Below, in pieces: positions 50,429-61,151 of a DNA stretch of 64,000 nt. The position numbers were made by a program, and so were the translations under genes. The notes below the pieces were generated by a model. It worked only from the letters and a program-made list of their open reading frames with translations, made no database searches and had not been told where the DNA came from. The first letter of the stretch is position 1, and the number at the start of each line of letters is the position of its first letter. The DNA comes from Clostridia bacterium (GTDB lineage Bacteria > Bacillota > Clostridia > Oscillospirales > RGIG577), in NCBI GenBank assembly GCA_017513095.1, contig JAFWDJ010000024.1, forward strand, positions 6,073 through 70,072, read 5' to 3'.

Positions 50429-50433
50429 GAAAC

Positions 50434-50471
50434 GGGGCTTATATGACAAAACTCAAAGTCATATAAGCCCC
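50434..50471. terminator. Bidirectional terminator bounding the low-GC cluster
   Basis: 14-bp perfect stem ggggcttatatgac(50434-50447)/gtcatataagcccc(50458-50471). Confidence 0.7.
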
Positions 50472-50557
50472 TTAATTATATTTACATATATGTCCTCCAA
50501 GCAAATAATCGTAAGCAACGATATAAATCATCTCTTGATATAAGTTTGAATTTTACG

Positions 50558-51328
50558 TTAGCGGCCGCCGTATTCGCTGCCATAATAGAGAACTTTTCTG
50601 TTCTCGATCTTACGATGATTAACGTCAATAATATATTCGTTTGAATATTGAGCCATCCAATATTCGCCAGACAACTTGCGATTAAGCAGTTTGTCCATCT
50701 CTTCTGATAGATATTCATAATTTGAGTTCCAAACACAAAGTTCTTCGCCGCTCAGTTCAGAATCGTTATCGTTGGCAGGCAGCACGGGATCGGATTTTAC
50801 GTATTCAATCAAGGCATGCAGCTTGTGTGATTCCCTACCTTCGCCCTGCTGTTTATAAAACTCTTCAAAAGAACTCAACAAATCATCGCATTCGATCCAC
50901 ATTGCAGAGTCGCCTGAACCGTACTTGGAATTCCGGATTACGATAGTTTCCAGATTATTCGCCGATATCCCTTGCTTTTTACAGTAATTGAGAAAACGGT
51001 TTATCTCTTTAGGAACCGCGTCTTGTAGCGGTATTTTTGGATATTCTCCATCTTCATCACATAATCCTTCAATGATTGCGGCGCTGAACAGCAGCTCGCA
51101 TAATTCTTCAAGGCTTTTTGCTGTGGATAATGATTTGCCGCCAAAACAGATCTCGCCGTTTTTAACTTCAGGAATAAGGTAAATGCTCTCCGCCGCTTCA
51201 TCTCCCCCATCTTCAGGGCTGACAGCATGCCAAAAATCCGCCATTTTCTTATTCTCGTCAATCAGATATATCTCCAGAATATAGCTTGCACTGCTCGAAT
51301 TGGTCACAAAATCCGTGCGTATTTTCAC
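50558..51328 (-). CDS. FVTNSSS-motif protein, paralog 3 (unknown function)
   Basis: 256 aa. GTG start after GAGGA. N-terminus MKIRTDFVTNSSSASYILEI is shared with the ORFs at 51988-52815 and 55027-55698. Confidence 0.75.
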   Translation of the reverse strand: MKIRTDFVTNSSSASYILEIYLIDENKKMADFWHAVSPEDGGDEAAESIYLIPEVKNGEICFGGKSLSTAKSLEELCELLFSAAIIEGLCDEDGEYPKIPLQDAVPKEINRFLNYCKKQGISANNLETIVIRNSKYGSGDSAMWIECDDLLSSFEEFYKQQGEGRESHKLHALIEYVKSDPVLPANDNDSELSGEELCVWNSNYEYLSEEMDKLLNRKLSGEYWMAQYSNEYIIDVNHRKIENRKVLYYGSEYGGR

Positions 51329-51465
51329 TTTAGGTCCTCATTTCTTTATTGAAATATTGATAAAACCAAGCACGGGGCAACGGCTGGTCCTTGAATATTA
51401 TTATATGCTGCCGCCCTTAAGACAGGCAAATCCTTTGCCAAAAACGCGCTCTCTCTCGCGGCGTA

Positions 51466-51618
51466 TCACCGTTTGTCTGCGGCGATATAAATATCGGGAG
51501 CTTTCGTATAATTTTTACGTGAGAGGTTTTGCAAAGCGCACCTTATGCAGTTCACCGGGAAACCGCAGCTCGGGCACACGCCGTCCTCCATAGGCGTACC
51601 GCAGCGCGGACAATCCAT
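51466..51618 (-). CDS. Mini zinc-ribbon protein, copy 1 (50 aa, absent from the ORF track)
   Basis: MDCPRCGTPMEDGVCPSCGFPVNCIRCALQNLSRKNYTKAPDIYIAADKR. GGAGGAG RBS 5 nt upstream. The first 24 codons are duplicated at 55749-55853, with mostly synonymous differences. Confidence 0.65.
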   Translation of the reverse strand: MDCPRCGTPMEDGVCPSCGFPVNCIRCALQNLSRKNYTKAPDIYIAADKR

Positions 51619-51635
51619 ATTTACTCCTCCTTTTC
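51547..51635 (-). repeat. About 89-nt repeat (RBS + zinc-ribbon coding start), copy 1
   Basis: About 90% identical (7 mismatches in the 72 coding nt by manual alignment) to 55782-55870. Confidence 0.8.
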
Positions 51636-51987
51636 TTAAAAATAATGCTGTTGTCGGTATATTCGTGTGAGCTTTGAATTATTATAATCAAGTGTTTTTA
51701 CACTGATTTTGCTGATATTCAACTTTGTATCCTGATATCCGCCTCTTATTCTTTTTAGGCTGCTGTATTTAGTAAACCTTATGCAGTAAAGAGACGATCG
51801 TTATTATATAATTGCTGCTTTTCTGTTCTCTCTATACCTTTGAGCACTTCTTTTCTTAACAGTCCGATCCACCGGAGCAGTTTTTTTGAAAAATCGTAAG
51901 CATAATTGCCGCGTTAAACAAATCATGGGTCTTCCGGTTGCGGCAGTTTCGGCCGCTTATTTAAGAAATTCTTCGATGGGGCGCAAT

Positions 51988-52815
51988 TCACACCCCCGCG
52001 AGCCAATCGAAAATCATCTCGAAATCATTTTCCGAAATTATAGGGATGTTAAGCTCCAAGGCTTCTTTTATTTCCGCAGTAGTAGATTTCGGATCGTTGG
52101 TTATTAAATAGTCAACATTTCTCGAAATCGTACTAACGACAGTACCGCCGAACGCATCGATAAAATCTTCTGCATCTTCTCTATAAACGCAATTTTCAGC
52201 AATAAAAAATCTTTTGCCTTTAAATGCATGTATATCTAAGCCGCTTGTCTCACTGAAAACGCTTCCGCTGCGCATATGCAAACAAATGCTTTCCCATTCT
52301 TCTTCCGCACTTCCATCGAATTTTTCATATACGTGCGGTTTGACTTCTTTGGTCAAGAGTTTTACCGTGCCGCCATAACGCACGAATTCTCCCCATGCTT
52401 TGTGTGTTTGGGTAATGGTAATGAACGAAATGTCTGATGTGTTGAAAAAAGAAGATCTTAAGGCGCTTTCAAAATCATCAAGGTCTTTAGTCATTTTTTT
52501 CAAAAAATCATCATCATATTTTTGGCTTAGTTTTTTTAAGCTTTCATTAGGACATTCTTCGTCGCTTTCCGGGTCAGTGTAATCTAAAAGCGTAACAGAA
52601 TCAGTCAGTGCTTTTGCCAAATCGGAAACAGAATCGATGCCGGTCAAAGCTTTCAGATTTGCCACATTAAAGCTTGCTTCACCGCCGCCATATGTATAGG
52701 TATCTGTAGGATCGATCTCGACCCACACTTTTTTATCATTTGGACCCATAACTTCGATTACGACGGAAAAACTGCTGCTTGAGCTGTTTGTCACAAAATC
52801 AGTTCTGAATTTCAT
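51988..52815 (-). CDS. FVTNSSS-motif protein, paralog 2, fused to a C-terminal BRCT domain
   Basis: 275 aa. N-terminus MKFRTDFVTNSSSSSFSVVIEV. C-terminus FKGKRFFIAE...GGTVVSTISRNVDYLITND...NIPIISENDF aligns with the LigA BRCT in this window. Confidence 0.8.
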   Translation of the reverse strand: MKFRTDFVTNSSSSSFSVVIEVMGPNDKKVWVEIDPTDTYTYGGGEASFNVANLKALTGIDSVSDLAKALTDSVTLLDYTDPESDEECPNESLKKLSQKYDDDFLKKMTKDLDDFESALRSSFFNTSDISFITITQTHKAWGEFVRYGGTVKLLTKEVKPHVYEKFDGSAEEEWESICLHMRSGSVFSETSGLDIHAFKGKRFFIAENCVYREDAEDFIDAFGGTVVSTISRNVDYLITNDPKSTTAEIKEALELNIPIISENDFEMIFDWLAGV

Positions 52816-52838
52816 GTTGAATCTTCCTTTCCGTTAAA

Positions 52839-53915
52839 TTATTTTGTTCTTTCTTCGCTGCCGCAGAAGACGATTTGTGGCATAAGCGGGCATCCGCCCA
52901 TGCATAAGGCTTTTTTTTCGCAGCCGGGGCAGGCCGCGCGCATTTTATCGCGGAAACGCTCGAAGGGCTCGCTGTTCCACGCGTCTTCGATTGAAACTTC
53001 TTCGCCAAGCCGTACCTCATAGCGTTTATTCTGGTCGAAGGAGCACGGCACCATGACCATATCCGCGCCGATGTAGCAGCTGAAGCGCCCGCCCTCGCAC
53101 GTATCGAGAGACTCGGGCATGATGCGTTTGCAGAAGTTCAGCGCGCCGGGCACGTTGCAGGAGTCCATGCCCACCTTGAATGAATGGTGCTTGTCTACCT
53201 GAGAAAAGAACTTGGCCACGCGGGGATCGTTAACGTCCAGCACGTTTGACTGTGACCCCTGTCCCGCCGGCTTGTGCAGAAGAAAGATCACCGCGTTGAT
53301 TCCCTGAGGAAAGTCGTCTCGCTCGAGCCTGTCGATGGCCTCGTCGATGCTGTTCCGGCCGAGTACGTAGTGGATATTTGTCTTCACGCCCGCACAAAGC
53401 AGCATCCGAACGGCGTTTAGTGTATACTCGCTTCGATACCAGCTTACAGCGACTGCGCCGCAATACTTTTTGCAGAGAGCGGCAATTTCCGGCGTCATGC
53501 CGTAGCCTGAGGTCGTGAAGTTTGGTACAAGGCAGTTTTCCCGGCTGATGCGCAGCAGGTCTTCAAAATGTTCGTGCTGATCGGGGTCGCCCCTGCCGCC
53601 CAGCGCAAGCTGGTTGCAGCGGCCGCGGCACTGCTTTGCAATCAGACGGAAGTTTTCAACCGTCATATTGGGCTGCTCCACCAAAAGACCGCTCTGATAG
53701 CACCCGATGCCGGCCTTTGCGCAGAGACCCGTTCTGCCGTGGATGCAGTGCCCCATAACACCGACGTCGATAAGATGCGGAAACGACGCCATAAACGGAT
53801 CGACTCCGGTGTCGCGCCCGTTTTCGTCAAGCACGCCCGTGCGTATATATGCGCCCGTGTCGGTGTCAAAGGCGGATTTAAAATGATATTTCTTGTCGTC
53901 GATTATGTATTTCAT
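52839..53915 (-). CDS. Radical SAM/SPASM-domain enzyme with non-canonical N-terminal Cys spacing
   Basis: 358 aa. CIHGRTGLCAKAGIGC (Cx7Cx6C) where CxxxCxxC is expected. GGE-like ALGGRGDP and TNG-like NFTTSGYG. SPASM Cys pattern CEGGRFSCYIGADMVMVPC...CPGCEKKALCMGGCP. Confidence 0.75.
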   Translation of the reverse strand: MKYIIDDKKYHFKSAFDTDTGAYIRTGVLDENGRDTGVDPFMASFPHLIDVGVMGHCIHGRTGLCAKAGIGCYQSGLLVEQPNMTVENFRLIAKQCRGRCNQLALGGRGDPDQHEHFEDLLRISRENCLVPNFTTSGYGMTPEIAALCKKYCGAVAVSWYRSEYTLNAVRMLLCAGVKTNIHYVLGRNSIDEAIDRLERDDFPQGINAVIFLLHKPAGQGSQSNVLDVNDPRVAKFFSQVDKHHSFKVGMDSCNVPGALNFCKRIMPESLDTCEGGRFSCYIGADMVMVPCSFDQNKRYEVRLGEEVSIEDAWNSEPFERFRDKMRAACPGCEKKALCMGGCPLMPQIVFCGSEERTK

Positions 53916-53971
53916 TTATTCAAATCTCCCTCGTTTTCTTTCCGATATATTCTCTGCCGCCCTTTTTTGTT

Positions 53972-55012
53972 TCATTCCTGAGTCGAATCAGACGGCGTCA
54001 GATACTGCGCGATAAACTCCTGCTCGCTGATAATAGGAATGCCGTCTGATTGTGCTTTACGTATCTTTGTTGTGCCTGAGTCCGGAAAATTGGTGATAAG
54101 AGCAGTCGTTTTGGAGGATACGCTTCCGCTCAGCTTTCCGCCGTTATGGAGAATTATCTCTTTTAACGCATCCCTGCTTGAAAAATTGAACAGATCGCCT
54201 GTGACGACAAAGGTCTTTCCCGAAAGTTTTTCAAATTCTCCTAAGAGCGCTGCATTAAGCCCTTGAAAGGAAAAAGATATCTTTCCCGAAAGCTTTTCAG
54301 ATTCTCCGGATGAAATGTTTACGGCCTTCTGTTTTTTCGGTTTTTCCGGCGGAACATAAAATACTTCGTTTTCGGGATAATGAATTTCGATAGTTTTGTA
54401 AGGAGCGGTCAGCCGTTTCTTCGGGTAAGGTTTGGAAGGCACGATTTCATCTGAGCACATTTGTTTTTTTCCGTCAAAAAGCACGTAGTCCTGCCTCTCC
54501 CACATGGGCTTTTCTTTAAACTCGTAAAGCTTCCCTTTGATTCTGAAGCTGTCCTCAGTCGGATCGTGAATAATACTCCATCTGTCACGAGCATAAAAAT
54601 CACACGTGTCAATGTAACGCATAACGGTAACAGAAGGATATCCGCTCTCAGAGTACGCAAGGTAGACAGTTCTGTTTTTCCAGTCTTCCGCGAAAAATAC
54701 CGCCTTCATATATGGATAATTTTCCAGCACATAAGGCACATGTGCGCTTTCGCATTCAAATTGAGCAATTCCATCGCATAACGTGTCTATTATCTTCCCG
54801 GGATTATCGTTATCGGGCCAGATTGTCCTGACCGCATCCAGTACGTCGAATTCCAATCCTCTGAAAACAGCCCCTGAGAAATAAGCAGTTTTCTCATATT
54901 GCTCTTTTGCGGCGGCGTCGGTAGAACCTGCTGTAAACGGGCACATCCTGCCTTCCGAAGTAAGCCTTTCAATAAATGCGTCTTTCTTTTCTTTTGCAGT
55001 ACTGTAATTCAT
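53972..55012 (-). CDS. Unknown N-terminal domain + C-terminal BRCT domain protein
   Basis: 346 aa. C-terminus LSGKTFVVTGDL...GGKLSGSVSSKTTALITN...GIPIISEQEF closely parallels the LigA BRCT (FTVVVTGTL...[18 protein letters not shown]...[10 protein letters not shown]). Confidence 0.8.
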   Translation of the reverse strand: MNYSTAKEKKDAFIERLTSEGRMCPFTAGSTDAAAKEQYEKTAYFSGAVFRGLEFDVLDAVRTIWPDNDNPGKIIDTLCDGIAQFECESAHVPYVLENYPYMKAVFFAEDWKNRTVYLAYSESGYPSVTVMRYIDTCDFYARDRWSIIHDPTEDSFRIKGKLYEFKEKPMWERQDYVLFDGKKQMCSDEIVPSKPYPKKRLTAPYKTIEIHYPENEVFYVPPEKPKKQKAVNISSGESEKLSGKISFSFQGLNAALLGEFEKLSGKTFVVTGDLFNFSSRDALKEIILHNGGKLSGSVSSKTTALITNFPDSGTTKIRKAQSDGIPIISEQEFIAQYLTPSDSTQE

Positions 55013-55026
55013 TATAATCCCCCCTG

Positions 55027-55698
55027 TTAAACCAAATCAAAATCTGATGTATCAAAGTATTCGCCGGTTCTCAGGTTCAGTCGTTTTATCTCTACGCCGC
55101 TTACGCGTCCCGGACCATATGAGCTGCACAGACGTTTTGCGAGCGTTTCCAAAGACCGACCGCCCCAATTATAACGACATACAGCCGCATTTCCGAATGA
55201 TTCTCCAATTGCGTCCGAAACTGTATTGATGTATGTTACCATTTCTGCTTCGGCACGCATTTTTTCTATTCCGGTCTGGGCTTTAAGATACTTTTGGGCC
55301 AGTTCAATGAGTATTATGTCGTTGTCTGCAATAATATCCGCCATCTCTCCCCATGCGTCGTAGCGTCGCTTCACCGTTATTTCGACAATATCCCGAACGC
55401 TGTTGAACTTAGTGCATGCTTCTCTTATAAATCTTTCCTTTTTACGGCGCAGCGGGTATGAGTCCGTGCTTTCCCAGTAATCATGAATTGAGCCTGCAAG
55501 CCATGTCGCCAGCTCGTTCACGGAAGAAAGGTGAGAATTGATGTTTTTCAAATCTCCGTTAAAAACCATTGTGGAGCCTCCGTCTGAGGTCTGCCTGTTC
55601 TCCGAAATGCTGACATATCGATTTGGCGAGCTGATCATAACCTCCACTGTAAAATTGCTTGAACTGGAATTTGTCACAAAGTCTGTGCGTATTTTCAT
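55027..55698 (-). CDS. FVTNSSS-motif protein, paralog 1 (unknown function)
   Basis: 223 aa. ATG after GGAGG. N-terminus MKIRTDFVTNSSSSNFTVEVMI. Shares an I-x-I-x(n)-WGE block with paralog 2. Confidence 0.75.
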   Translation of the reverse strand: MKIRTDFVTNSSSSNFTVEVMISSPNRYVSISENRQTSDGGSTMVFNGDLKNINSHLSSVNELATWLAGSIHDYWESTDSYPLRRKKERFIREACTKFNSVRDIVEITVKRRYDAWGEMADIIADNDIILIELAQKYLKAQTGIEKMRAEAEMVTYINTVSDAIGESFGNAAVCRYNWGGRSLETLAKRLCSSYGPGRVSGVEIKRLNLRTGEYFDTSDFDLV

Positions 55699-55748
55699 TA
55701 TACCTGCCTCCTTGCCTTTCTAAATATGCTGTAAAACCGTGTTTTCTC

Positions 55749-55853
55749 TTACGCTTTGTCCTGAACTTTTAATTCTGCGTGACAATTCACCGGGAAACCG
55801 CAGTTAGGGCAAACGCCGTTCTCCATAGGCGTACCGCAGCGCGGGCAATCCAT
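55749..55853 (-). CDS. Mini zinc-ribbon protein, copy 2 (34 aa, absent from the ORF track)
   Basis: MDCPRCGTPMENGVCPNCGFPVNCHAELKVQDKA. GGAGGA RBS. Lies 50 nt upstream of paralog 1. Confidence 0.65.
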   Translation of the reverse strand: MDCPRCGTPMENGVCPNCGFPVNCHAELKVQDKA

Positions 55854-55870
55854 AAGTATTCCTCCTTTTT
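55782..55870 (-). repeat. About 89-nt repeat, copy 2
   Basis: See 51547-51635. Confidence 0.8.
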
Positions 55871-55953
55871 GGTTAAAAATGCGGCAATTTAGCCTTAGTA
55901 TTTATTTTGTATCATCGTCCGTGAGCGCATCTTCTTCATAGAGGCCAAGGGAT

Positions 55954-57285
55954 TCAAAGCTTTTTCAGCATTTCTAACGCATTACGGTCGCCGCCCTCAG
56001 CGCCTCTCTTGATCCACGCCTTTGCAATAGTTTCATCTCTCTTAACACCGTCTCCGCGACCATACATAAGTCCCAGGTTTGTCTGGGCCTGCGGAAATCC
56101 CAGTTCTGCTCCCCGCCGGTACCACTGAACCGCCGCCGCTTTGTTGACTGCAACGCCGCGTCCTTTCTCATAGCACAAGCCTAGCATCCACATTGCTTTC
56201 GCACTGCCTCCTTCTGCAGCTTTTTTTGCCCATCGGATGCCGTCCTGATAGTCTATCGCGCTGTCTCCGTCGCTGATGCAAATGCCAAGAGATATATACG
56301 ATTCCGCAATATCCGTCTGCGCGTTTATATCCCCGCTCTCTGCAACGGTTTTCCGTTCGAGGATCGATCGGATTATTTCTGTTAAATTCAGCGCATCATT
56401 ATCTCCGGCTTCAGCCGCCCGGGATATATACTCTTCGGCTTTTGCCAGATTTCGCGGGACGCCGAGTCCCCTTTCGTACATCAGCCCTATGTTGAAAATG
56501 GCGTCTCTGTCATTACGTTCTGCTAGACGATCAAACCAGAGCTTTGCTTTCCTGTAGTCCTGTTTCAAACCATTTATCCTCTTGAAATAAGAGATCGCAA
56601 GATTTGTCATAGCATAGATGTTTCCATACGGAGCAAGGCGCATGGATTCTTCCAGCGTTGTCGGTCGATATTCCTCATTTTCCCGACCGTCAGTGCTTTC
56701 CGCAATTGTATTTGATAGTTCAATCGCAATATTCACCAATCCCTTTTCGATCAGATTGACGCCGAGTGCGGAGTAATACGCTTCGGAAATCGCATCTGAA
56801 TAAATAATCAGATGGTTATCCGAAGCAGGAAGCGCAGACAACGCTTTGATCGCCGCAGGCAGAAAATCCAGTTCCCGTTTCTTTCCCAGCTTCAAGGAGA
56901 GATCGCCCTCCCATGCGGGAGCCTGTCCTTTGGCACGGACAGTATGCAAGCTGCATCCATGTTCCGTAATCGCAAGAGCATAGAAGATACAAGCCAGCGT
57001 TTTTGAGATCTCCTCCTTCGATGGCATTGTTTCCCGCACATAGGCGCTCAAAGCAATAGGGATGCGATCGAGGGTATTGTAATCTAAAGCAAAGCATTGA
57101 TCCTGCCCAAGCGCCTGAATTTCCGATTGCAGAAAGAGGGACAGGTACCGTCCCATGATCGCCTCTCCCTGTACGGCAACAGGCTGTTTCGGTAGCTGCA
57201 ACCAATGCTCTTTGTGTAATTCGTATTGATTTAGTATTTTCTCTATCGCTTCGTTTGGGGTCAGAAGGGACATCCATTCTCTCAT
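55954..57285 (-). CDS. Sel1-repeat (SLR/TPR-like) protein
   Basis: 443 aa. The C-terminal half holds several Sel1 repeats (AIFNIGLMYERGLGVPRNLAKAEEYISRAAEAG; AMWMLGLCYEKGRGVAVNKAAAVQWYRRGAELG; AQTNLGLMYGRGDGVKRD...). Confidence 0.8.
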   Translation of the reverse strand: MREWMSLLTPNEAIEKILNQYELHKEHWLQLPKQPVAVQGEAIMGRYLSLFLQSEIQALGQDQCFALDYNTLDRIPIALSAYVRETMPSKEEISKTLACIFYALAITEHGCSLHTVRAKGQAPAWEGDLSLKLGKKRELDFLPAAIKALSALPASDNHLIIYSDAISEAYYSALGVNLIEKGLVNIAIELSNTIAESTDGRENEEYRPTTLEESMRLAPYGNIYAMTNLAISYFKRINGLKQDYRKAKLWFDRLAERNDRDAIFNIGLMYERGLGVPRNLAKAEEYISRAAEAGDNDALNLTEIIRSILERKTVAESGDINAQTDIAESYISLGICISDGDSAIDYQDGIRWAKKAAEGGSAKAMWMLGLCYEKGRGVAVNKAAAVQWYRRGAELGFPQAQTNLGLMYGRGDGVKRDETIAKAWIKRGAEGGDRNALEMLKKL

Positions 57286-57376
57286 AATCTTACACCTCGT
57301 TTTAAGTAATTAAGCGCGATTCTCATCTGCATTAAAATCCGTCTTTTAGGTATTTCTGCTTAACCGGATAATATAT

Positions 57377-58231
57377 CTACTCTGAAACCAGAGTATCAAA
57401 ATATTCATCCTCGAATTCTTCTCTGCTCTTTATCCCCAGTTCTTTTATACGCTCCACCGCATTTTTAAACGATTCTTCATCTATTTTTACCGGGAATATC
57501 TCGGTAAACTCACTTAAACTGAGCTCAAACAATTTTCTCTCTCCAAACAATTCTTCAATAGAATCGTAGTAATAATTTTCATAATCATCACTATCGAATT
57601 CAAATAGTTTTTTGAACTTTTCATAAGAAAGTATGTCTGCAACATAATCGAAATAGGCAGAATCGAAATAGTCACTATCGGGGTCTGCCCATATCGTTAC
57701 CACTAACGGAATCATCGGCAGTGGGCCCGAATATTTGGTGTATGAGGAGAATGATTTGGTTTTTGGATCGTAAAACCTTCCCCAAATCCCTTCACTATCA
57801 TCATCTTCTTCATTCTCTTGGAGGTCCTCTCCAAATGGCTTGTAGTCGAAGCTTAAGAATAACCGTCCGTCCTTAAGCTCCGCATCTAAAGATTGTTTTG
57901 AACCGGGATCAAATCCTGAAATTGATCCTCTAAAATAACAGGTGGGCGCTGTGTCAGCAATTCTTTGGAAAAGGTCACAATCATCCTCGAGAAGACCGTA
58001 CCAGACTCCATACGGACCGCTGAGACCTAAAGACATTTCTCCCGATTTCCAGCATGTGTCTACTTCCTTTTCAGGATCGCCTATCGTTACATCCAAATAC
58101 CAGCAGTCGTGTTTTTCTCTGTATTGCTTTTTCCGATCATTTGCGTAATGCCTAAGCACCTTCATAACCTCCAGACACTCTTCTTTTGTTCCCTTAACGG
58201 TAATCACCGTTGTAAAATCAGCTGCTCCCAT
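57377..58231 (-). CDS. Acidic hypothetical protein (first gene of the low-GC cluster)
   Basis: 284 aa. GGAGG RBS. Asp/Glu/Tyr/Phe-rich C-terminal half. About 40% GC in a spot count. No family recognised. Confidence 0.65.
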   Translation of the reverse strand: MGAADFTTVITVKGTKEECLEVMKVLRHYANDRKKQYREKHDCWYLDVTIGDPEKEVDTCWKSGEMSLGLSGPYGVWYGLLEDDCDLFQRIADTAPTCYFRGSISGFDPGSKQSLDAELKDGRLFLSFDYKPFGEDLQENEEDDDSEGIWGRFYDPKTKSFSSYTKYSGPLPMIPLVVTIWADPDSDYFDSAYFDYVADILSYEKFKKLFEFDSDDYENYYYDSIEELFGERKLFELSLSEFTEIFPVKIDEESFKNAVERIKELGIKSREEFEDEYFDTLVSE

Positions 58232-58496
58232 GTTAATACCTCCATCAGTTTATTCTGATTGATTTTTATCGCACCATTATTATACAAAATCGAGTTAGAC
58301 AGAACCTGTCCATGTGATATACATTTTCAAAAAATTTTAGCAATTATAAATATTTTTTCATGATTCCAATTAGCTGTATGCTCGTTTACGGCGGCTCTTA
58401 ATTCTGATGAGATAAATTGACGTGTTAAACCGTCGTTACAAATATCCGACTATAATTATACTCCAAATTCCGAAAAAACCAGATTTTTGACTTAAT

Positions 58497-58536
58497 ACAA
58501 AAAAGAAGTGCGGCCGATTGGCCGCACCCTTTTTGA
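58497..58536. terminator. Bidirectional terminator between the PolC-like gene and the low-GC cluster
   Basis: Stem gtgcggcc(58508-58515)/ggccgcac(58520-58527), with an A-run upstream and a T-run downstream. Confidence 0.6.
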
Positions 58537-58578
58537 GCGCATATTAACCTTAAAATAATTTGGTTTCGCCGCGGTTTC

Positions 58579-61151
58579 CTATCGATCCAAGCGTTTCGCC
58601 CTATACGGCACGCGGATGCTGCCGTTTTCGGGGACGAAACGCTCCGCGTGGGACGCGTTTTTGTCGGCAGGAAGGAATGAAATGCCAGAGTCGTAGCATT
58701 CCAGGGCAAGCTTCAGGATTTTTATACGTTCCGACTCAATACATCTTTCGCCCTGCTTTCCCACAATTCGATTATACTCCTCATAGGCGCGCGCGCGGCC
58801 TTCGGCGAGGACGCCGTAGAGGACGCCGTAATCGAATTTTGGCTCATCAAACTCATCAATGCACGAAAGAACGGCGGCAAAGAACGCGGCGGGGCGGTTT
58901 ATTCTGTACCATACCTTCCTGAGATCGTTTATCACGGATCCGATCGCGTGCGCCTTTGGAAAAAGATAATATATCTCCCTCATCGATGCGATTAACCGTT
59001 CGGGGACGCCGTGTTGCTTCATTATTTCAAGCTGACTTTCATCAAAGCCGTGACGCGCCCTGCCCATTCTCACGTATTGTGCTATGGAATACGCGTCTTT
59101 TCGTCCTACTCCGTATCTCATCAGAGAAAGCATGACGTCCTCGCGAAACGCGATAGGCCCGCCGCAGTCGGCGCACGCCCCGATAAGCTCTCCGGGATCG
59201 TCGGAGCGGTCGAAGACGCCGTGATCAAAGCCAAAGATATTTACAAGGTCGGAGAATTTTGTCGGCTTTACGGCGGAGATAAATCTTTTAAAACTCTCCG
59301 AGCCGAAAGAAATGCCCTCAAGACTTGCGGCGCCGAAATACGAGGCGAAATCTATATCGCCAATATCAATGCTTTCTGCCGGCACGCCCGAATACTCTTC
59401 CATAAGCTTAAGCTCCGAAAAAAGCGTAAAGTCGTACATACATATTCTTTCAAGTGGGAGATAACGACAATCAATAAGCGTTATAGGCTTGACTTTGCCG
59501 CAAGAGCGTGACAGATACGTGTACCGTGTCGGTGAAAAGTCGGATATATCATATCCCCGGGGAACGATGAGAAAGGCTCCGGGGTGTCGGCCGCCCGCTA
59601 CATGCACCGACGCCATTTTTTTGACAATGCGTTCTCTTTGTCCGAGGCCTATGGACGTATTCGTTTCTTCGCAGTATTTATCTACCAGATCCGAAATACA
59701 CCGCTCGCCCATCCGTCCGTAAATCGTAGACTCCGAACCGGCGAGAACCGTGTTGTTCCTGCCGAACACCTCTTCAAGGCAATCAAGAATTTCCGTTCGG
59801 ATATCTTCGGCAAAGTTAAAATAAAACTCAGGTGATATGTCCCCTTCGTACCCGGTGAAGAATTCGCACGGGAGATTATGCCCGTCGCCCGTGTAAGGTG
59901 TGCCGCAGTCGGGACAAAGGCGCCTTTCGACGCCGAAGGTGACAAGATCGTATCCCGAGGCGCACTCCGTCTCATCGACGAATTCTACCCTTTTGCAATT
60001 CGGGCAGAAATAATGCGGCGGCAGAGGATTTGTCTCCGTTATGCCCAAAAGATACGAAACGAACGAACTTCCGACGCATCCGCTAAGCTTGTGAATATAG
60101 CCTTTACCGCGGCTTTTGTCGGACATTTTCGCCGCAAGCAGATAGTGTGACCAGCCGTCCGAACTGTCAATCTTTTCGAACTCGTCCGCTATGCGCAGGC
60201 GTATGATATCCGGCGCCGCTTCGCCGTATTTTTCGGCGGAGGCACTCAGAGCGCGCGATATGACCTTGCTTCGCGCGTAAGGAAGACAGAGCGTCGGCTT
60301 TTCAAACGGGAGCGGGTCGAAGCTTTCGACCGCTTCCGCGATGAGGTTCGTGTTTTCTATGACCGCCGTTTCCGTCATATCCCCAAGGAACGCAAAATCG
60401 CGAAGCATCTCCTCGGTCGACTTCATAAAGGCGATATTTTCATCCTGCCCGTCCTTCTGATGGAGGATCTTAAAGCAGAGCTCGTCTTCCTTTGTTATGC
60501 AGTTCGCGCGGCTTACCGCGGCGGGATGTTTTCCGATGCTCTGAAGGACGCGGACTGCCGCGAGTGCCGCCTCTTTGAGCGCGGCCCCGTCCGCTTCCTC
60601 TGACGAAACCGCCGAAAGCGCGCTTTTTGGGGGCAAGGTGATCTCTGCGTAATCGACGCCGTCAAATAGGACGAAAGCTCGCGCCGGACGTCAGCTTCGC
60701 TTTTATTTACGAAGCTTTGTATATGATCCCACGTGCATTCCCTGCCGATGAGAACGTCCTCTTTGTATTTGAGCACCAAATCCCAATCGATGTACGGCCG
60801 TTGATCGTTTTTAAGGTCCGTCGCCGCTTTTCGGTAACCGGCCGAAATGATAAGGTACACGTTTCTTAATCCGTGCCTCGTTTTGGCAAGCAGTGTTATA
60901 AAGAATTCGCCGCCGTTTTTGTCATGGCATAAAAGCCGCACGCCGAAAATGGCCTTGATTCCCGCATTCGCGCTTTTAACGGCTTCTGAAAGCTTTAAAA
61001 CGGAATGCACGGAGTCGAAATCTGTTATCGCCACGGCGTTTGAGCCGTTTTTTACTGCGAAATCCACGACGTCATCGGGCGTTATCACCGTTTCCCGGTA
61101 TCCGAAGCAGGAGCTTACGCCAAGCTCGATATGTCTTTTTTCGTTTGCCAT
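58579..61151 (-). pseudogene. Truncated, frameshifted PolC-like (PHP + Pol III alpha) paralog
   Basis: Two overlapping ORFs (60513-61151 and 58579-60636). PolC-type zinc module PPHYFCPNCKRVEF...CPDCGTPYTGDGHNLPCEFF. Colinear with PolC to the C-terminus (YLFPKAHAIGSV...ISFLPAD). No exonuclease, OB or N-terminal domains. The reading frame changes near 60671-60690. Confidence 0.7.

Follow-up and report, generated by a model that had tools for sequence, protein, structure and literature searches.

The open reading frame (ORF) at positions 52839-53915, minus strand, of a 64,000-nucleotide stretch of DNA from Clostridia bacterium (contig JAFWDJ010000024.1; this whole stretch is referred to below as the window) raises a question about what a radical S-adenosylmethionine (SAM) enzyme requires: can a protein that lacks the canonical CxxxCxxC motif be such an enzyme and, if so, on what does it act? 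The answer favored here, at a probability of roughly 0.6, is that the ORF specifies an active radical SAM-SPASM maturase, its target of modification being the flexible tag at the N-terminus of co-encoded, polymorphic proteins of phages and defense islands.

The gene is intact, with an ATG start and a GAGGGAGA ribosome-binding site upstream, and its 358-amino acid (aa) product has Cys residues at positions 57, 65, 72, 96, 100, 128, 148, 152, 174, 253, 262, 273, 280, 291, 329, 332, 338, 342 and 351. Regular-expression search bears out what the first-pass annotation of this DNA had claimed: CxxxCxxC is absent from the whole sequence, and the N-terminal part has a single Cys triad, C57-IHGRTGL-C65-AKAGIG-C72, of spacing Cx7Cx6C (the non-canonical SAM-cluster loop CIHGRTGLCAKAGIGC, identified by alignment and family profile; 53700-53747, minus strand). 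The single CxxC of the protein, C329-PG-C332, lies in its SPASM part. Two radical SAM landmarks that had been pointed out from the sequence are also there: ALGGRGDP (53583-53606, minus strand), a variant GGE-type SAM-binding motif with an extra Arg inserted and Asp in place of Glu, and NFTTSG (53505-53522); these align, respectively, with the GGEP motif and the TTN position of SuiB, SkfB and PqqE.

The SPASM region (52863-53159, minus strand), delimited by Pfam, NCBIfam and conservation, contains eight invariant cysteines. Four of them form the block CX2CX5CX3C (C329-x2-C332-x5-C338-x3-C342), to which C273, C291, C351 and the upstream C253 are added; the seven-Cys SPASM pattern for two auxiliary clusters is present. 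The SPASM assignment made at first sight is upheld by Pfam, in which PF13186 scores 30.2 bits against a cut-off of 21.5, and the TIGR04085 score is borderline (27.0 against a cut-off of 27). Other radical SAM-SPASM maturase models of NCBIfam are matched far below threshold, and no named family is reached. The top match among these, at residues 64-159, is to TIGR04317 (31.4 bits, cut-off 380), and identity as a tungsten cofactor oxidoreductase radical SAM maturase was rejected, the equivalog score not being reached. Existing annotation goes no further: an identical protein is entered as 'SPASM domain-containing protein [Clostridia bacterium]', and source annotations of homologues say 'radical SAM protein', 'SPASM domain-containing protein' or 'hypothetical protein'.

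The ORF encodes a genuine radical SAM/SPASM-fold protein, as the first-pass annotation had held, for which SAM cleavage is predicted. This identity follows from the predicted fold, from matches of the family profile and from the 3 + 8 invariant cysteines. The AlphaFold2 model, built on 37 diverse homologues, has a predicted local distance difference test score (pLDDT) of 94.5 and a predicted template-modeling score (pTM) of 0.92. In this model, strands and helices alternate over residues 48-250 as a partial (beta/alpha)6 TIM barrel, the arrangement of the radical SAM core, and a small three-stranded sheet is formed at the N-terminus (strands 2-7, 12-17 and 23-25). Foldseek places SuiB, anSMEcpe, CteB, TigE, SkfB and PqqE at the top of its matches in the PDB and gives probability 1.00 to many radical SAM structures. 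Comparison of the family profile with solved enzymes gives SuiB at 2.5e-15 and anSME at 2.8e-10, and also SkfB, PqqE and BtrN. (The single protein, used as query of the PDB sequences, retrieves only adiponectin, a spurious match; the solved enzymes came up with the profile.) In the profile alignments the cluster loop of the family falls on CX3CX2C, and ALGG-G[DE]P falls on GGEP. The CX3CX2C after strand 1 that typifies the superfamily is lacking, and Cx7Cx6C holds the homologous position.

Conservation of the stretched loop was assessed in 212 sequences, 132 of them bacterial or metagenomic and 80 from phages, with identity down to 53%. The spacing is the same in all of them (132/132 of the close homologues from bacteria or metagenomes and 80/80 of those from phages), far more than chance or sequencing error could produce, so that the alignment of homologues that had been proposed as a check comes out at 212 of 212 for Cx7Cx6C. 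C57, C65 and C72 are likewise kept in 212/212, and each of the eight SPASM cysteines in at least 210/212; these 3 + 8 near-invariant residues match the ligand need of three [4Fe-4S] clusters (3 + 4 + 4). Residues between the cysteines are conserved too, the consensus of the stretched clade being GHC-IHG[KR]TGL-C-[VA]KAGIG-CYQSG, and ALGGRGDP is conserved to 97-100% at seven of its eight positions (67% at P111). The same census disposes of the notion that a frameshift, a sequencing error or a wrongly chosen start codon hides a canonical CxxxCxxC: the spacing recurs in hundreds of independent assemblies, the identical protein is found on independent contigs, and the ORF is intact behind its ribosome-binding site. 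That explanation is refuted and can be dismissed for practical purposes. Neither of the findings that had been named as fatal to the first-pass annotation, an artefact of this kind or membership in a family of characterised maturases, was made.

The stretched-loop clade also has an extra CxxxC pair, C148-KKY-C152, within LCKKYCGAVAVS (codons 53472-53474 and 53460-53462). C148 is kept in 206/212 and C152 in 210/212 sequences, and C152 is nearly invariant in an 11-sequence alignment of the wider family as well.

That wider family has many members: at E <= 1e-3 it forms 4396 clusters at 90% identity, and at 50% identity there are 1391 representatives. It is informative about where the loop came from. 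Cx7Cx6C is found in 149/270 retrieved family sequences, the others including Cx3Cx2C, Cx4Cx2C, Cx5Cx2C, Cx5Cx3C, Cx7Cx3C and Cx5Cx6C. In an alignment of 37 sequences all variants of the triad occupy the same columns as the CxxxCxxC of distant members, ending in C-Y-Q. By a rough neighbor-joining tree, the diverse part of the family is where canonical forms lie, Cx5Cx3C forms are intermediates, and most Cx7Cx6C forms, those of the query and the phages included, fall into one clade. Because it shares alignment columns with canonical members and is connected to them through intermediate spacings, the stretched loop is, on this comparison of sequences, homologous to the canonical CxxxCxxC motif and derived from it.

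Two further kinds of variation are seen among relatives. In a subclade (P0134, P0140, P0153, P0158 and P0162) the triad and the GG motif are lost in part or in whole, with retention of the SPASM cysteines. At the P0162 loci (L096:6218-7306 and L097:1148-2236) the gene has a flavodoxin-like gene on one side and an overlapping Thg1-like gene on the other, in an element that also carries single-stranded DNA-binding protein (SSB) and topoisomerase genes. Three other relatives (P0132, P0144 and P0189) contain inteins of ~400-450 aa with a LAGLIDADG-like homing endonuclease, in all three at the same site, directly before ALGG (...VFQ|C...SHN|CALGG...), which corresponds to ~53604-53609 in the window. 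Where the N-terminal part of these intein-bearing proteins is present, it has a canonical or a Cx5Cx3C motif. Inteins are typically located at functionally critical sites.

What accompanies the gene is the key to its probable function. Three ORFs in the window, all on the minus strand, start with MK[IF]RTDFVTNSSS and are elsewhere only 21-28% alike. Partner 1 (50558-51328, tag codons 51281-51328) is a protein of 256 aa with a GTG start, beginning (M)KIRTDFVTNSSSASY. Partner 2 (51988-52815, tag codons 52768-52815), beginning MKFRTDFVTNSSSSSF, has 275 aa and a C-terminal BRCT domain identified by Pfam; its gene begins 23 bp past the enzyme stop codon. Partner 3 (55027-55698, tag codons 55651-55698), beginning MKIRTDFVTNSSSSNF, has 223 aa, no known domain, and 83 homologues, none of them named. 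An AlphaFold2 model of partner 3 has pLDDT 93 overall, falling to 53 at residues 1-10, and no secondary structure over residues 1-12; its body finds no fold match in the PDB or BFVD. The tag is accordingly modeled as a free, flexible tail ahead of a folded body.

Tagged genes almost always accompany the enzyme. Related loci were found with the 11-sequence family alignment in a collection of one genome per species, which has relatives of the enzyme in at least 488 stretches among the 500 pattern-matched stretches listed. Counts for genome loci refer to the best 80 of these (enzymes 72-87% identical), of which 79 are informative. One to four tagged genes are present in 77/79, usually starting 30-50 bp past the enzyme stop codon (included are three loci in which the tag is a variant, FVTNSSD, and two whose copies are frameshifted). 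What is shared is an N-terminal segment of 13-16 residues, MK[IF]RxDFVTNSS(S), fixed at the extreme N-terminus, with its Phe at residue 7 in nearly all sequences and small, polar invariant residues (T9, N10, S11 and S12). The bodies are hypervariable, with BRCT, LRR, TIR, HIRAN or no known domains. All related loci first looked at had a tagged gene, including a Bacteroidota locus and phage-like loci with canonical-motif enzymes. The same tag stands beside canonical (L002, L013 and L014), Cx5Cx3C (L221) and Cx7Cx6C enzymes; the stretched enzymes thus keep the tag under the same constraint, which argues, at the level of sequence, that they retain the ancestral activity.

The association extends to phages, and it holds when examined from the side of the tag. 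Enzyme relatives are present in 427 IMG/VR viral contigs; the best 80 are all Cx7Cx6C. In these, up to eight small tagged proteins are encoded in an array after the enzyme gene, and pairing is seen in nearly all phage loci. Conversely, the exact DNA pattern for MKIRTDFVTNSS occurs in 42 viral stretches, 30 of which have the enzyme gene in the same stretch. Pairing of enzyme and tag is strict in both directions. When ORFs within 4 kb of the enzyme are clustered, the tagged family (68 loci by BLAST links) is the sole recurrent neighbor; the next genuine cluster covers only eight loci, and another, of 12 loci, has the appearance of an ORF that overlaps the enzyme gene in antisense. No protease, transporter/exporter or reductase emerged as a third conserved component from a search of the same 4 kb. 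Since the tagged family is the only recurrent neighbor, the system is regarded as two-component; it is common in gut bacteria and their phages.

The best 80 genome stretches carry record titles of Oscillospiraceae, Lachnospiraceae, Acutalibacteraceae, Bacteroidales, Muribaculaceae, Coriobacteriia, Erysipelotrichaceae and Bacilli, the cultivable hosts Acetatifactor muris DSM 23669 (L077) and [Clostridium] aminophilum KH1P1 (L045) being among the sources, and enzymes that are 72-87% identical occur in genomes of different phyla (Bacillota, Bacteroidota and Actinomycetota; L015-L094). This spread points to horizontal transfer, probably by way of phages; some assignments of short contigs of metagenome-assembled genomes may be binning errors. 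Truncated ORFs in which the tag is followed by a stop after 14-48 codons (L044:5735-5848, L063:7088-7222, L015:1904-2047 and L062:7068-7109) suggest frameshifted or decaying genes, and hence turnover of partner cassettes, or are errors of assembly. A homologue of 27% identity is also found in 167 records of cultured phages, mostly T4-like enterobacterial phages (RB16, RB43, KP15, Miller and CfP1), where GenBank has it just as 'putative radical SAM protein' or 'hypothetical protein'; that of RB16 (L178; HM134276.1, 90403-91557) has a Cx7Cx2C loop (CNGPAGKLCGFC). With this identity and this loop, and with no FVTNSS-tagged neighbors, the T4-like homologues (RB16, RB43, KP15) were set aside as a different subfamily.

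The tagged proteins themselves are 80-1070 aa long. In a set of 67, Pfam identifies LRR_5/LRR_8 in 11, BRCT in seven, DUF285 in two, and HIRAN, TIR_2 and a beta-propeller in one each; most have no match. Those of phages are small, often acidic and unannotated, many of them 90-130 aa long without a recognisable binding domain, and the two PHROGs that are matched (phrog_7293 and phrog_7397) are both listed as 'unknown function'. In one phage subfamily (L116:9868-10419, L100:10245-10820, L221 at ~8650, and others) the tag runs into a CxxC, ...SSSSS[FY]VC[DE]ICG..., as if a zinc ribbon had been fused onto it. The members of a second subfamily are 165-171 aa long and match phrog_7397; two of its copies (L116 and L169) end ...SHH and ...SRH. 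Neighbors of the related bacterial loci include DISARM-like, NERD, Vsr/methylase, Mrr and WYL genes, which suggests a defense-island context. PADLOC-DB 2.0 yields no defense-system match for the enzyme; its sole match is a BRCT-domain similarity of two neighboring proteins to PDC-S48.

We infer that the tag is the substrate, covalently modified as opposed to bound only, and extend this to a type of chemistry and a biological role. The enzyme would carry three [4Fe-4S] clusters, a SAM-cleaving one in the stretched loop, which would have lengthened in evolution from CxxxCxxC to Cx7Cx6C, and two auxiliary ones. The flexible N-terminal tail of a co-encoded MK[IF]RxDFVTNSS(S) protein (candidate substrate peptide MKIRTDFVTNSSSSSF) would enter the active site, where a residue of the invariant T-N-S-S stretch would be altered by radical chemistry. 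Because all eight SPASM cysteines are present, both auxiliary clusters would be fully ligated and serve to carry electrons, and the reaction would be a net oxidation: most likely a two-electron one, either an anSME-like oxidation of Ser or Thr or the formation of an intramolecular cross-link. The variable bodies (BRCT, LRR, TIR, HIRAN and the small acidic phage proteins) would perform diverse jobs in phage-host conflict and depend for these on the shared modification. The conserved loop, the 3 + 8 cysteines, the pairing with the tag, the flexibility of the tail and the inteins at the GG(E) motif all support the maturase. A precedent exists as well, from conflict systems that pair a radical SAM-SPASM enzyme with variable precursors sharing a conserved FxSxx peptide at one terminus (PMC7159879).

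Several observations weigh against this reading. PF04055 (Radical_SAM) gives no match to the enzyme, Pfam reporting PF13186 alone; PF04055 is recorded for relatives with the canonical motif, among them P0154 (loop CTKGCPYC), P0163 and P0225, and for two of the 120 closest homologues. Gly replaces the aromatic residue usually found before the third Cys. The variants surveyed by RadicalSAM.org are of the CXnCX2C type only, with n = 4-11 (PMC9477430), and the x6 second spacer is without precedent among them, so that the geometry of SAM binding could be altered or lost. As the Cys-less subclade demonstrates, the scaffold need not be lost along with radical chemistry, although its functional setting there is apparently a different one. 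Finally, two genome loci (L058 and L076) have the enzyme and no tagged gene within 6 kb.

All but the last of these points (for the subclade, specifically, that P0153, P0158 and P0162 lack triad and GG motif yet retain the SPASM cysteines) can be marshaled for a pseudo-radical SAM protein, whose loop no longer cleaves SAM and which would serve as a redox partner, a chaperone or a binder of the tagged proteins, with its SPASM clusters only or with no cluster at all. Such a protein would not be expected to hold C57, C65 and C72 in 212/212 sequences over 53-100% identity, together with the loop glycines and ALGGRGDP. Moreover, the Cys-less forms are a separate clade, and the P0162 locus (L096/L097), the sole Cys-less locus with flanking genes, has no tagged gene; inteins have been inserted at the GG motif of relatives; and the tag is equally conserved beside canonical and stretched enzymes. 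Loss of SAM cleavage is therefore judged quite improbable.

The same tag can also be thought of as a docking peptide and not a substrate. The enzyme would then be a catalytic core and the tagged proteins its interchangeable targeting subunits (LRR, BRCT, HIRAN and others), which, attached through an N-terminal strand, would bring it to the phage proteins, DNA ends or small molecules that are modified. One highly conserved enzyme facing many hypervariable partners per locus, partner domains typical of binding or sensor modules, the fixed position of the tag at the extreme N-terminus (Phe at residue 7 in nearly all), and an N-terminal sheet in the enzyme (strands 2-7, 12-17 and 23-25) that could take an added strand would all be in keeping with this. 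On the other hand, a docking strand is expected to be hydrophobic, and T9, N10, S11 and S12 are small and polar; many phage partners are acidic proteins of 90-130 aa with no recognisable binding domain to target anything; and most characterised SPASM enzymes modify the peptide or protein that they bind (PMC7159879). Docking without modification is considered unlikely.

A third possibility concerns the other substrate that had been proposed at first. The first-pass annotation had named Cys-rich mini ribbons and Ser-run proteins as candidates; the Ser-run proteins are the tagged ones, and their standing as functional partners is now supported by 77/79 loci and by the phage arrays. The mini ribbon has fared otherwise. 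SPASM enzymes often form thioether peptides, and a small CxxC...CxxC ORF does exist in the island (51466-51618, 50 aa, a putative zinc ribbon), so that a classical maturase of ribosomally synthesized and post-translationally modified peptides (RiPPs), yielding a sactipeptide or ranthipeptide from such a small Cys-rich peptide, might be imagined. Among 163 related loci none has a homologue of the zinc-ribbon ORF, proteases and exporters are not recurrent near the enzyme, and the presence of all eight SPASM cysteines gives no indication of an open site on the first auxiliary cluster. This assignment is highly improbable; with partners of 80-1070 aa, no recurrent protease or transporter and an unconserved zinc-ribbon ORF, the RiPP maturase class (sactipeptide, ranthipeptide, streptide) was rejected.

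The preferred reading, a maturase of the tag, places the enzyme in a known kind, the radical SAM-SPASM maturase with a cognate protein substrate; its cluster motif, its substrate family and its distribution in phages and defense islands are new. The nearest comparison for the chemistry is with anSME/AtsB (PDB 4K36-4K39), which likewise joins a radical SAM core to a SPASM domain, the latter having two auxiliary clusters fully ligated by Cys, and which targets a short motif, Ser included, on a whole co-encoded protein. It differs in its canonical CX3CX2C and in recognising (C/S)xPxR within sulfatases instead of an N-terminal FVTNSS tag. Identity as an anaerobic sulfatase maturase (TIGR03942) was rejected at 13.2 bits against a cut-off of 349.45, the recurrent neighbors being tagged proteins and not sulfatases. 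SuiB/StrB, the streptide Lys-Trp cyclase (5V1Q), heads both the structural matches (E 4.7e-10) and the profile matches (2.5e-15) and has the same radical SAM-bridge-SPASM layout, but it has an N-terminal RiPP recognition element (RRE) domain, a short leader-core peptide as substrate and a canonical motif, and is only 13-15% identical.

The nearest comparison for the genetic organization is with the FxSxx-COOH system (FxsA precursors and the radical SAM-SPASM enzyme FxsB), reportedly described by Haft and Basu in 2011. Highly variable precursors with a short, conserved, F/S-rich terminal motif, a radical SAM-SPASM partner and conflict neighborhoods are common to both; there, however, the motif is C-terminal and is freed by a peptidase in a multi-gene system, while here it is N-terminal and the components are two. 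No FxsB model is among the NCBIfam matches of the enzyme at E <= 0.1. Placement of FxSxx-COOH in conflict systems is due to Kaur et al. 2020 (PMC7159879).

As regards the cluster loop, other enzymes have three cysteines in non-standard spacing: QueE (CX14CX2C), HmdB (CX5CX2C), ThiC (CX2CX4C) and the CX4-11CX2C variants of RadicalSAM.org. Such spacing hides them from detection by motif or by Pfam (PMC4389238; PMC9477430). QueE and HmdB both retain CX2C (PMC4389238), as do the other CXnCX2C variants listed; ThiC alters it in a different architecture. Unlike these, the present family lengthens both spacers (x7 and x6) in an ordinary radical SAM-SPASM core, and has canonical, intermediate and stretched forms in one family. 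No described precedent was found for an ordinary radical SAM core in which the second spacer is longer and the aromatic residue ahead of the third Cys is missing.

A more distant analogy is offered by the internal proteins of phage T4, in which a capsid-targeting N-terminal tag on hypervariable small proteins, encoded in arrays, is read by the prohead scaffold and protease. It is an analogy only, in that no radical SAM enzyme reads that tag, and the present system occurs in bacterial chromosomal islands as well. Curated models (Pfam, NCBIfam, PADLOC and PHROGs) do not name the stretched-loop clade or the tag; no paper in the literature searched treats the clade, the FVTNSS tag or their pairing, and a search on SPASM and anti-phage function found only grasp-with-SPASM peptides.

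Radical SAM enzymes are usually found by CX3CX2C together with PF04055; the stretched clade escapes both and is thereby missed in a census of the superfamily. Its family provides a natural series of first and second spacers (x3/x2, x5/x2, x5/x3, x7/x6 and complete loss) in which to test what the cluster loop needs to do, and the invariant N-terminal tag is an obvious substrate candidate that makes the chemistry of the enzyme directly testable. More speculatively, with the odds against the full proposal, the enzyme and its tagged partners might constitute an unrecognised, very widespread two-component system of defense islands and of the phages of anaerobes in which a radical-derived mark installed on the FVTNSS tag licenses a repertoire of conflict proteins, and the enzyme might be the first with a radical SAM core shown to hold its SAM cluster with both spacers expanded. 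If so, the mark might be a reactive aldehyde or a cross-link, carried by LRR, TIR, BRCT and HIRAN proteins in bacteria and by small acidic arrays in phages, and the supposed need for the CX2C half of the motif would be relaxed. The tagged proteins are polymorphic and lie in defense islands and phage accessory arrays, and a shared, oxygen-sensitive activation of them, if it is real, would be a new regulatory layer in the conflict of gut phages with their hosts.

In the window, the system resides in a low-GC island of ~8 kb (50429-58578; ~40-45% GC apart from the enzyme gene) that runs from a DUF815 ATPase gene to a DnaE-like gene. Its upstream edge is marked by a strong hairpin terminator (58506-58529), the only notable element of a promoter and terminator scan whose counts are not above those of shuffled sequence. 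As had been noticed in the first-pass annotation, the enzyme gene is closer to the host in composition than its neighbors are, at 55.8% GC and 69% GC at third codon positions (GC3) against 40-45% GC and 38-46% GC3 for the adjacent island genes; the window as a whole has 51.6% GC, and the DUF815 gene a GC3 of 68%. Across the 79 loci the GC content of the enzyme gene follows that of its flanks (r = 0.91) and is above it in 71. The pattern fits a long-resident, strongly constrained enzyme gene next to rapidly exchanged partner cassettes.

The ORF list has an untagged 346-aa protein (53972-55012, minus strand) with a C-terminal BRCT domain identified by Pfam; its gene separates tagged gene 3 from the enzyme gene in a tight run. 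The N-terminal 250 aa of this protein have no family match, only the BRCT domain recurs in related loci, and its membership in the system is uncertain. The island also specifies a Sel1-repeat protein (55954-57285) and a 284-aa protein without known function (57377-58231), each found again in only two related loci. Next to the island, the DNA polymerase III alpha-like gene (58579-61151, minus strand) reads as two overlapping ORFs, one with the PHP domain (60513-61151, 212 aa) and one with the DNA_pol3_alpha part (58579-60636); the same split is present in the source contig (L001), and could represent a frameshift, a pseudogene or a truly split gene.

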